37,019 nucleotides of DNA, from positions 1-37,019 of the IMG/VR virus record IMGVR_UViG_3300019765_000010; one strand, written 5' to 3'. Both the position numbers and the translations under genes were made by a program. Source of the DNA: a virus. Lineage: Duplodnaviria; Caudoviricetes. The notes below the pieces were generated by a model. It saw only the letters and a program-made list of their open reading frames with translations. It was not told the DNA's origin and did no database searches. Positions within the stretch are counted from its first letter, which is position 1; the number at the start of each line of letters is the position of its first letter. Below are positions 11,826-35,975 of the stretch, in pieces.

Positions 11826-11910
11826 TGCGAGTAGGGAGACTTGAACTCCCACGACCATAATGGTCAACAGATTTTAAGTCTGGTGCGTCTACCGATTCCG
11901 CCACACTCGC
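11826..11910 (-). tRNA. tRNA-Leu (UAA)
   Basis: GCGAGTG acceptor, GGCGGAATCGGTAGACGC D-arm, CT-TAA-AA loop, long variable arm, GTTCAAG T-loop; CCA not encoded. Confidence 0.95.
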
Positions 11911-11914
11911 AAGG

Positions 11915-11986
11915 TGGGTGAAGAGGGGATCGAACCCCCGACCGCCTCCGTGTAAAGGAGATGCTCTACCTCTGAGCTATTCACCC
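11915..11986 (-). tRNA. tRNA-Val (UAC)
   Basis: GGGTGAA/TTCACCC acceptor, TT-TAC-AC anticodon loop, GGTTCGATCC T-arm. Confidence 0.95.
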
Positions 11987-11995
11987 GATGGGACA

Positions 11996-12024
11996 ATCAT
12001 ACCAAATGTGGTGCTGATTGTCAA
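11996..12024 (-). promoter_or_regulatory. Sigma70-type promoter inside the tRNA cluster
   Basis: TTGACA-17 bp-TATGAT, ending 9 nt before tRNA-Val. Confidence 0.8.
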
Positions 12025-12025
12025 G

Positions 12026-12098
12026 TGGGGGTCGCGAGGATCGAACTCGCCTTAGCCGAATTATGAGTTCGGTGCATTCACCAGATTGCTAGACCCCC
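12026..12098 (-). tRNA. tRNA with CAU anticodon (elongator Met or Ile2)
   Basis: GGGGGTC/GACCCCC acceptor and CCGAA-CT-CAT-AA-TTCGG anticodon arm. It lacks initiator hallmarks (no C1:A72 mismatch, no 3 consecutive G-C pairs). Confidence 0.9.
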
Positions 12099-12102
12099 CT
12101 GA

Positions 12103-12174
12103 TAGGAGTACTGGGAGTTGAACCCAGACTAACCCGTTATAAGCAGGCCGCTCTAACCATTAAGCTATACTCCC
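12103..12174 (-). tRNA. tRNA-Ile (UAU)
   Basis: GGGAGTA/TACTCCT acceptor, TAGCTTAATGGTTAGAGC D-arm, GCCTG-CT-TAT-AA-CGGGT anticodon arm, GGTTCAAC T-loop. Confidence 0.9.
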
Positions 12175-35393: not shown

Positions 35394-35424
35394 AAAAAAA
35401 AAGAGAGGTTAATTAACCTCTCTT
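35394..35424 (-). terminator. Rho-independent terminator closing the riboswitch operon
   Basis: Perfect palindrome AAGAGAGGTTAATTAACCTCTCTT followed by a T-tract on the minus strand. Confidence 0.85.
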
Positions 35425-35508
35425 AATTAGTAAGATTTCTCCATATATGATAGTTATAAATGCAATACAAAATAGAGATAGAATTCCTGCTACTTGTAGT
35501 GCTTCCAC
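35413..35508 (-). CDS. 31 aa single-pass membrane micropeptide
   Basis: Not in the track. GTG start; MEALQVAGILSLFCIAFITIIYGEILLIKRG; fills the gap between the DUF4278-like gene and the terminator. Confidence 0.6.
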   Translation of the reverse strand: MEALQVAGILSLFCIAFITIIYGEILLIKRG

Positions 35509-35512
35509 AACA

Positions 35513-35677
35513 TCACTTCTGATAAGTATGACCGCGATAGCAAAATGTTCCATGAACTTCATCAACATTTTGCTTGCACTCAAACTTTACACCACGATAT
35601 GTGGTCATAGCAATTTGTGCATCGTGCAGTGCTGCTGCTTTTTGAATCTGCTTTTTGATCAGAGAAAGTGTGTTCAT
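35513..35677 (-). CDS. DUF4278-like small protein
   Basis: Not in the track. AGGAG SD; MNTLSLIKKQIQKAAALHDAQIAMTTYRGVKFECKQNVDEVHGTFCYRGHTYQK has two YRG motifs. Confidence 0.8.
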   Translation of the reverse strand: MNTLSLIKKQIQKAAALHDAQIAMTTYRGVKFECKQNVDEVHGTFCYRGHTYQK

Positions 35678-35715: not shown

Positions 35716-35896
35716 CCGTTCCTTCAGTCGTTTGCGTCCCATGGACATTCAGGTGTTGCTTCTTGAATTACTTCAATAAGCTCAACCTTAACTTGATTAT
35801 TTAAATTTTCATTAGCATTAATGCGACTAATCATGTCAGCAGCATCAGTACAATGAATACTCGAATAAAATAATAAATCAAACATGGGATGAACGC
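35716..35896 (-). promoter_or_regulatory. Second glnA-type glutamine aptamer, interrupted by an ORF-containing P2 loop
   Basis: CGTTCA-TCCCATG...[139 nt]...CATGGGA-CGCAAACGACTGAA-GGAACGG; same flanking blocks as aptamer 1. Confidence 0.6.
35724..35885 (-). CDS. 53 aa ORF nested in the riboswitch aptamer
   Basis: Not in the track. MFDLLFYSSIHCTDAADMISRINANENLNNQVKVELIEVIQEATPECPWDAND; GGAG 10 nt upstream of the ATG. Confidence 0.7.
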   Translation of the reverse strand: MFDLLFYSSIHCTDAADMISRINANENLNNQVKVELIEVIQEATPECPWDAND

Positions 35897-35897
35897 T

Positions 35898-35938
35898 CCG
35901 TTCCGCGACTTACTTGCGTCCCCGAAGGGATGAACGAC
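35898..35938 (-). promoter_or_regulatory. glnA-type (class I) glutamine riboswitch aptamer
   Basis: TCGTTCA-TCCC-TTCG-GGGA-CGCAAGTAAGTCGC-GGAACGG. P1 is CGTTC/GAACG and P2 has a cUUCGg tetraloop; it starts right at the predicted TSS. Confidence 0.8.
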
Positions 35939-35946
35939 CTGTGTAT

Positions 35947-35975
35947 ATTATAACTTATACATTCTATCTAGTCAA
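35947..35975 (-). promoter_or_regulatory. Sigma70-type promoter for the riboswitch operon
   Basis: TTGACT-17 bp-TATAAT. Confidence 0.85.

Follow-up and report, generated by a model that had tools for sequence, protein, structure and literature searches.

The stretch of viral DNA analysed here (hereafter the window) spans the 37,019 nt of IMG/VR record IMGVR_UViG_3300019765_000010, a linear record whose open reading frames (ORFs) look T4-type, with a putative single-stranded DNA-binding protein, PhoH and ThyX among them. Four tRNA genes lie on the minus strand at 11826-12174. The same strand carries a small unit composed, in this order, of a promoter match, a double aptamer with a nested 53-codon gene, a DUF4278-like gene, a 31-amino-acid ORF and a terminator match. 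The sigma70-type promoter candidate (35947-35975; TTGACT, 17 nt, TATAAT) lies about 10 nt upstream of the aptamer and is a consensus match only, with 11 of 12 positions in agreement. The -10 box lies at the centre of an inverted repeat (35943-35960) that also occurs upstream of the aptamer in other loci (L007, L008, L033, L038); the arms of the repeat change together between phages, and it may be an operator, a cruciform or an RNA hairpin in read-through transcripts. Late-promoter-like loci (L017, L021) carry a hairpin just upstream in place of this repeat.

The first-pass annotation had described a glutamine aptamer (unit 1) followed by a second one (unit 2) with a gene in place of its tetraloop, and all the elements it listed were found on the minus strand where it had placed them. 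The 5' half-motif CGTTCATCCC occurs twice in the window (35936-35927 and 35895-35886; chance mean 0.03, no two copies in any of 100 shuffles), as does the 3' half-motif GGGACGCAA-N5-14-GGAACGG (35922-35898 and 35740-35716; 0 of 100 shuffles). The outer aptamer begins with the P1 5' strand CGUUC and A6 (35931-35936, partner 35721-35717), followed by P2a (35919-35930), a 4-bp stem with a UUCG loop forming an empty gene slot (slot a), and by J2/3 (35911-35918), in which C21, G22 and C23 precede the AGUA strand of a loop-E motif and C23 (35916) has its partner in G60 at 35716. The 5' strand of a shared, covarying P3 (35906-35910) pairs with 35730-35726. The inner, circularly permuted P1 hairpin (35890-35904) consists of GAACG (35903-35899), a GAG loop and CGUUC (35895-35891), and it includes the inner-core G60 (35898), partnered by C23 at 35734. 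The long-range stem P2b (35737-35889) pairs 35889-35883 with 35743-35737 and closes a 139-nt coding loop, while the final strand (35716-35736) holds the inner J2/3 (C21, G22, C23), the P3 3' strand, the GAA of loop E, the outer P1 3' strand and G60.

The nested gene (35885-35724; 53 aa, PHROG 504) starts with an AUG in the 5' arm of the 7-bp P2b stem, and its tail (PWDAND-stop) falls in the 3' half of the aptamer, the stop codon coinciding with the last base of P3 and the loop-E strand. Its candidate Shine-Dalgarno (SD) sequence, GGAG (35899-35896), is located 10 nt upstream of the AUG in the inner P1 hairpin and overlaps the end of unit 1. Downstream, an anti-aptamer strand (35696-35689) overlaps the AGGAG (35690-35686) of the DUF4278-like gene (35513-35677; 54 aa, PHROG 545), the presumed target of the riboswitch. 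This gene had been named in the first reading and is present, with a PF14105 match (E 5e-4, 20.8 bits) below the Pfam cut-off of 25.3. The third gene, a 31-aa hydrophobic ORF (35413-35508), ends in the hairpin of a candidate intrinsic terminator (35401-35424) which closes the unit; relatives (L063, L080) encode comparable peptides after their DUF4278-like gene.

In Rfam, unit 1 scored below the gathering thresholds of both RF01739 (25.7 bits against 35, E 0.012) and RF01704 (23.2 against 33), and the scan returned no match to unit 2; the RF01739 model cannot span an interlocked form. The folding z of the region is -3.6, and P2b has pair probabilities of 0.6-1.0 in the predicted fold of the window.

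Homologous loci and the pairing of the two units

Homologues were collected by a protein search (58 loci) and by a junction-pattern scan covering 120 of an estimated 5200 viral stretches. These 178 loci and the window were parsed into 148 distinct complete double aptamers, 105 of them from the motif scan, the remainder being duplicates, truncated or chance matches; the parser demanded the core motifs, so that their invariance among the 148 is partly by construction. Relatives of the nested protein were present in 254 records, every one labelled Synechococcus, Prochlorococcus or "cyanophage", and a gene-free double aptamer used as query matched 435 phage records, all cyanophages or marine viruses. 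None of 120 junction-pattern hits in bacterial genomes, of which 5 of 64 parts were scanned, was a complete double aptamer. On the sequences compared, the architecture is widespread in cyanophages. Phage Syn9 has both slots filled, by genes annotated as gp196 and gp197, with gp198 downstream. Decayed forms (L313, L379, L049) show a lost 3' half, a changed position 23 and a frameshifted nested ORF.

Unit 2 had been drawn as a self-contained aptamer, a view which the comparison overturned: each of its halves pairs with the opposite half of unit 1, 5' with 3' and 3' with 5'. A long-range pair between positions 23 and 60 is conserved in the glutamine riboswitch (PMC6212724), and its glutamine-II equivalent is C19:G41 (PMC6698751). 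Read crosswise, 23-60 is Watson-Crick in 148 of 148 outer and 146 of 148 inner cores, against 128 and 127 when read within units, and the outer pair occurs as both C-G and G-C. An independent count of 30 gene-free loci gave 30/30 for both crosswise pairs against 22/30 for each within units, and 108 further distinct loci fetched by protein, partly overlapping the first set, gave 108 outer and 104 inner against 66 within units. A P1 change found in L421 led to a scan for P1 variants, where 126 loci were reduced to 71 distinct complete ones (39 incomplete or chance, 16 duplicates). All 71 pair positions 5 and 55 crosswise, through three different substitution patterns, and the uncompensated pattern was present in six stretches of the whole collection, none of them complete. 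Moreover, the unit 1 strand after AAGUA is complementary to the unit 2 strand before GAA, and both covary as an inter-unit P3 (variants AGUCG/CGACU, AGUCA/UGACU, GGACG-type, and 8-9-bp forms with non-canonical pairs); none of 10000 shuffles of partners reached the observed pairing. Folding energies favour the interlocked arrangement over the tandem one in 147 of 148 loci. All these counts come from related sequences, and at least five kinds of change agree; whole-structure scores fail to separate the topologies (both 0/500), which only the 23-60 rows and P3 do.

Given the crosswise 23-60, 5-55 and P3 pairs, the arrangement is therefore an outer glutamine-I aptamer with an inner, circularly permuted aptamer in its P3, and comparative evidence indicates that the two units are interlocked, not tandem. 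The inter-unit P3, a second gene slot in unit 1 and the helix pairing over the downstream SD were absent from the earlier drawing. The outer core comprises a P1/P2/P3 three-way junction with loop E, in which P2 and P3 covary and the AGUA and (G/A)AA strands are present. The inner core has no loop E and no 3' pseudoknot helix, position 60 running instead into a 3-6-nt loop and the P1 5' strand, and for lack of these two elements it may not bind. In glutamine-II, C1, G18/22, C39/58 and G40/59 are the ligand contacts (PMC6698751). With the numbering carried over from that model, the contact bases are kept in both cores (as C1, G2, G22, C58 and G59 in the outer one), and the units are probable glutamine sensors.

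Genes within the P2 loops

Across the sequences compared, either P2 loop is a short hairpin or a whole gene (147 cases) from one family of small two-cysteine proteins. The gene is in P2b only in 79 of the 148 loci, in both slots in 29 and in P2a only in 10, and 30 loci have neither; since these 30 lack any nested gene, it is dispensable for the switch. The slot-a ORF, found in 39 loci, encodes 59-69 aa. Every one of the 147 long loops contains an ORF starting near the stem base, one of which is frameshifted (L049). No more than 8 nt separate the AUG from the stem base in 104 of 108 slot-b and 39 of 39 slot-a loci, and the reading frames terminate in P2 or P3, not within the loop. Pairing takes in the whole AUG in only 42 of 104 slot-b loci; by a contiguous-stem count it takes in none of the AUG in 22 of 39 slot-a loci. 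The 7-bp P2b stem proposed in the first reading persists in part: 4-5 bp are conserved (pairs 1-4 in 108/108 slot-b loci, pair 5 in 99, pair 6 in 55), while the full stem occurs in only 41 of 108 and the exact heptamer pair in 21 of 108. Pairs 3 and 4 show changes on both sides among gene-bearing loci.

Slot filling has changed at least 14 and 16 times on a tree of 73 downstream proteins, a poorly resolved one (9 of 69 branches starred). One subfamily of nested proteins is found in both slots, an exchange which recombination between the repeated halves may explain. The empty loops vary freely and share no common scar. In one clade, a recurrent 22-nt near-palindromic hairpin, possibly a protein-binding site, sits in either empty slot (L079, L085, L091, L097, L101, L116, L122, L124 and others), and a P2a loop of intermediate size, 47 nt, recurs elsewhere (L113, L464, L467, L480, L509 and others), perhaps left over from a lost gene or an independent module. 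In the called genes of proteins P0001 and P0133 the slot-a and slot-b ORFs are in one frame through the inter-unit junction, as natural fusions or assembly artefacts.

The proposal that a real gene is nested in the P2 stem of the aptamer was borne out, the long-range pairs covarying while the loop evolves as protein. In the ORF interior, dN/dS has a median of 0.31 for slot b, with all 177 pairs below 1, and is 0.14-0.16 for slot a, a pattern indicating that the nested genes are under purifying selection. Each of the 146 intact nested proteins carries two cysteines and no more, spaced 30-39 residues apart, and 141 of the proteins link at E<1e-3. The protein of the window is predicted to form a two-helix hairpin (pLDDT 82), in which the two invariant cysteines may provide a disulfide staple. 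The nested proteins have no Pfam match and match only the unnamed PHROGs 504, 6471 and 13397; a fold search returned only uncharacterised cyanophage proteins and nothing in the PDB at E<=0.001, and the 458 and 392 relatives retrieved, like the Atlas clusters, are all without a name. The top hit among the relatives, P0121, is a repeat protein without the cysteine pair and was treated as spurious. In 211 of 215 untruncated protein-fetched loci both aptamer halves flank the gene, two of the remaining four being compensated P1 variants and two decayed; the family was not found free-standing among these 215.

Sequence comparison indicates that coding has shaped the RNA. The length of the P3 3' strand is compatible with the reading frame in 107 of 108 gene-bearing loci against 31 of 40 empty ones, the U of the stop codon is kept in 108/108 against 32/40, and G/A variation at position 51 switches the stop between UGA and UAA. 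GGAG is present in the inner loop of 33 of 34 gene-bearing loci of the window's class against 0 of 13 empty ones, an association which comprises only three independent pairs (p 0.25); in the long-P3 class it occurs in 0 of 31.

Extra folding specific to the nested ORFs was considered and rejected: their median z is -2.5 in slot b (40 of 103 sampled) and -3.4 in slot a (20 of 34 sampled), downstream control genes behave alike (-2.7; 40 of 111 sampled), and P2 also closes in 774 of 900 codon-shuffled versions. The DUF4278-like coding sequences thus fold more stably than their synonymous shuffles, as much as the nested genes do.

The best-matching RNA data sets are freshwater metatranscriptomes, four assemblies of which cover both aptamer halves and the downstream gene, including one exact contig of 283 nt. 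No near-identical piece listed from them spans the middle of the ORF. These contigs carry neither strand nor expression level, and their joints are no evidence of splicing.

Proposed control of the downstream and nested genes

Glutamine riboswitches are already known as ON switches upstream of DUF4278 genes, and an ON mechanism has been postulated for gifB (PMC6212724). In the predicted ligand-free fold of the window, 35727-35720 pair with 35696-35689, over the downstream AGGAG, with probability 0.9-1.0. The aptamer folds about 12-14 kcal/mol above this ligand-free fold, in a model which ignores tertiary contacts and the ligand; the median gap among homologues is 4.9 (45 of 137 sampled), and the aptamer 3' strand pairs downstream in 41 of the 45 sampled free folds. 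Position 51 covaries with its partner in this helix, A51 facing U in 37 loci and never C, and G51 facing C in 38 or U in 21, with 52 of 148 loci not classifiable. Both the ligand-free pairing and this covariation match the mechanism postulated for gifB, and the covarying helix predicts that glutamine would turn the DUF4278-like gene on. When the aptamer fold was forced, the SD window was freed in only 14 of 45 loci, with 28 equal and 3 worse.

An optional insert of about 30 nt, made up of GGATC, a variable and often GNRA-looped hairpin and then (A/G)AAGG, separates the 3' end of the aptamer from the downstream SD in L005, L008, L009, L011, L021, L029, L037, L071, L082, L104, L131 and L145, as well as in Syn9 (L300, about 1678-1705), and is possibly a further structured module.

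By its sequence, the nested gene overlaps the core at three points: the SD candidate falls in the inner P1 loop, the AUG in P2b and the stop codon in P3/loop E, which leaves no room on the RNA for a ribosome and the folded aptamer together. With the gene lying within one hairpin of the sensor RNA, host-nitrogen sensing and nested translation would compete on the same mRNA. We hold it reasonably probable that the interlocked cyanophage leader is a two-output nitrogen switch, in which glutamine turns the downstream gene on and holds the start region of the nested gene shut. Without glutamine, the aptamer 3' strand would pair with the strand overlapping the downstream SD (OFF). Since P2b closes only after the whole gene has been transcribed, the nested gene would probably be loaded mainly during transcription, at low glutamine. 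On reaching the nested stop, a terminating ribosome would open the OFF helix and could pass translation on downstream by coupling. Glutamine occupying one core or both would fix P1, P2 and P3 in place, expose the downstream SD and keep ribosomes from starting again on the nested gene. To a broader version we give roughly even odds: an interlocked two-site aptamer with exchangeable P2 gene slots, where the ligand would turn enclosed genes off and the downstream gene on, nested ribosomes would reset the sensor, and many of the glutamine riboswitches published as "tandem" would turn out to be interlocked dimers.

Predictions made without ligand already show P2b shut, both in the window and in 27 of the 33 gene-bearing loci sampled, and glutamine may therefore contribute little to keeping the nested gene repressed; this predicted closure would argue against a simple OFF switch and makes glutamine-independent kinetic control the main rival. 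The riboswitch would then govern the downstream gene only, and the P2 loops would be tolerant parking slots behind a strong promoter, with nested translation confined, regardless of glutamine, to a short co-transcriptional window set by P2 closure. We regard this as rather unlikely, though it accommodates a P2b predicted closed in both states, the presence of all four slot combinations (79, 30, 29 and 10 of 148) and the variable pairing of the AUG, and glutamine-II is described as tolerating both an altered P1/P2-equivalent loop and division into two pieces (PMC6698751). Against it, the AUG keeps close to the stem base (104/108 and 39/39), the stop falls in P2 or P3, and no free-standing member of the family was found in 215 loci; a neutral passenger, moreover, would have no need to overlap the ligand core. 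It is distinctly improbable, in our estimate, that the outer core alone binds glutamine, or that the RNA binds another ligand or a protein, with the inner core as a structural relic: the inner junction without loop E and the low Rfam scores would suit such a relic, but it would not need the compensatory changes which uphold inner P1 and inner 23-60, and the ligand-contact bases are retained.

The remaining two rivals concern the architecture itself. Two independent tandem aptamers, the second with a gene in P2, would fit the window taken alone, where P1 and 23-60, given identical halves, suit both topologies and only 1.6 kcal/mol separates the two folds, and published alignments treat such halves as single aptamers. 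The crosswise pairing refutes this arrangement comparatively and leaves it very little probability: within units, 23-60 is mismatched in 20-21 of 148 loci and 5-55 in 71 of 71 variant loci, and the window's class has no intra-unit P3. Scarcely credible, finally, is a gene that is an excisable insert, an intron or DNA cassette whose removal restores a compact aptamer. Empty and filled slots do coexist, one subfamily occupies both, and RNA contigs show joints across the loop; yet these joints are marked "between: not known", end at ten different places in the loop region and are compatible with relatives that carry other loops, the empty loops vary without a common scar, the stop codon lies in the aptamer outside the loop, and recombination between the repeated halves would explain slot exchange.

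Relation to known RNAs and significance

Coding sequence is tolerated in peripheral loops of structured RNAs, such as the homing endonucleases of group I introns and the tag of tmRNA; unlike these, the leader involves no splicing or resume codon, and start and stop overlap the sensor core. Further mRNAs with ends pairing around a small ORF are hok and the MS2 maturation gene. In type I toxin mRNAs, among them H. pylori aapA3, folding kinetics and a structure that sequesters the SD restrict how much of a small hydrophobic protein is made (PMC6733600), as may happen in the leader, but the closing helices here are parts of a presumed metabolite-binding core. The closest relative is glutamine-I (glnA motif, RF01739; Synechocystis gifB/IF17 leader), with which the leader shares P1 CGUUC/GAACG, P2, loop E, P3, the 23-60 pair, a predicted anti-SD helix at the 3' end and a DUF4278-like gene downstream (PMC6212724). 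Here, in contrast, P3 ends in a second, permuted aptamer, a gene occupies the P2 loop, the hosts of the element are phages and scores fall below Rfam gathering. Glutamine-II (RF01704) has the same ligand core without loop E, forms a strand-exchange crystal dimer and functions as two pieces (PMC6698751); the leader has no pseudoknot P2, and strand exchange is built into one natural RNA via the shared P3. Tandem glnA-type units also adjoin, and the part of the 2010 alignment compared contains half-units with the same P3-region sequences, there set out as separate aptamers with P3 unpaired, whereas the units described here covary crosswise and share one predicted expression platform. Neither nested genes of this kind nor interlocked glutamine aptamers were described in the literature searched, which included few subscription papers, so an earlier mention is possible.

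Riboswitch aptamers are usually viewed as compact elements that contain no coding sequence and precede the gene under their control. The leader would be a glutamine-riboswitch variant that is unusual in two respects, the interlocking of its aptamers and the placing of genes within P2: the sensor wraps around a gene, and two sensors appear fused by strand exchange. Standard scans miss this architecture, and an estimated 5200 viral stretches carry the junction motif. Cultured phages such as Syn9 carry it, which makes it directly testable. If the proposal is true, riboswitch searches should permit gene-sized loops and permuted units, tandem glnA alignments would need re-reading, and lytic cyanophages would gain a readout of the nitrogen status of their host.
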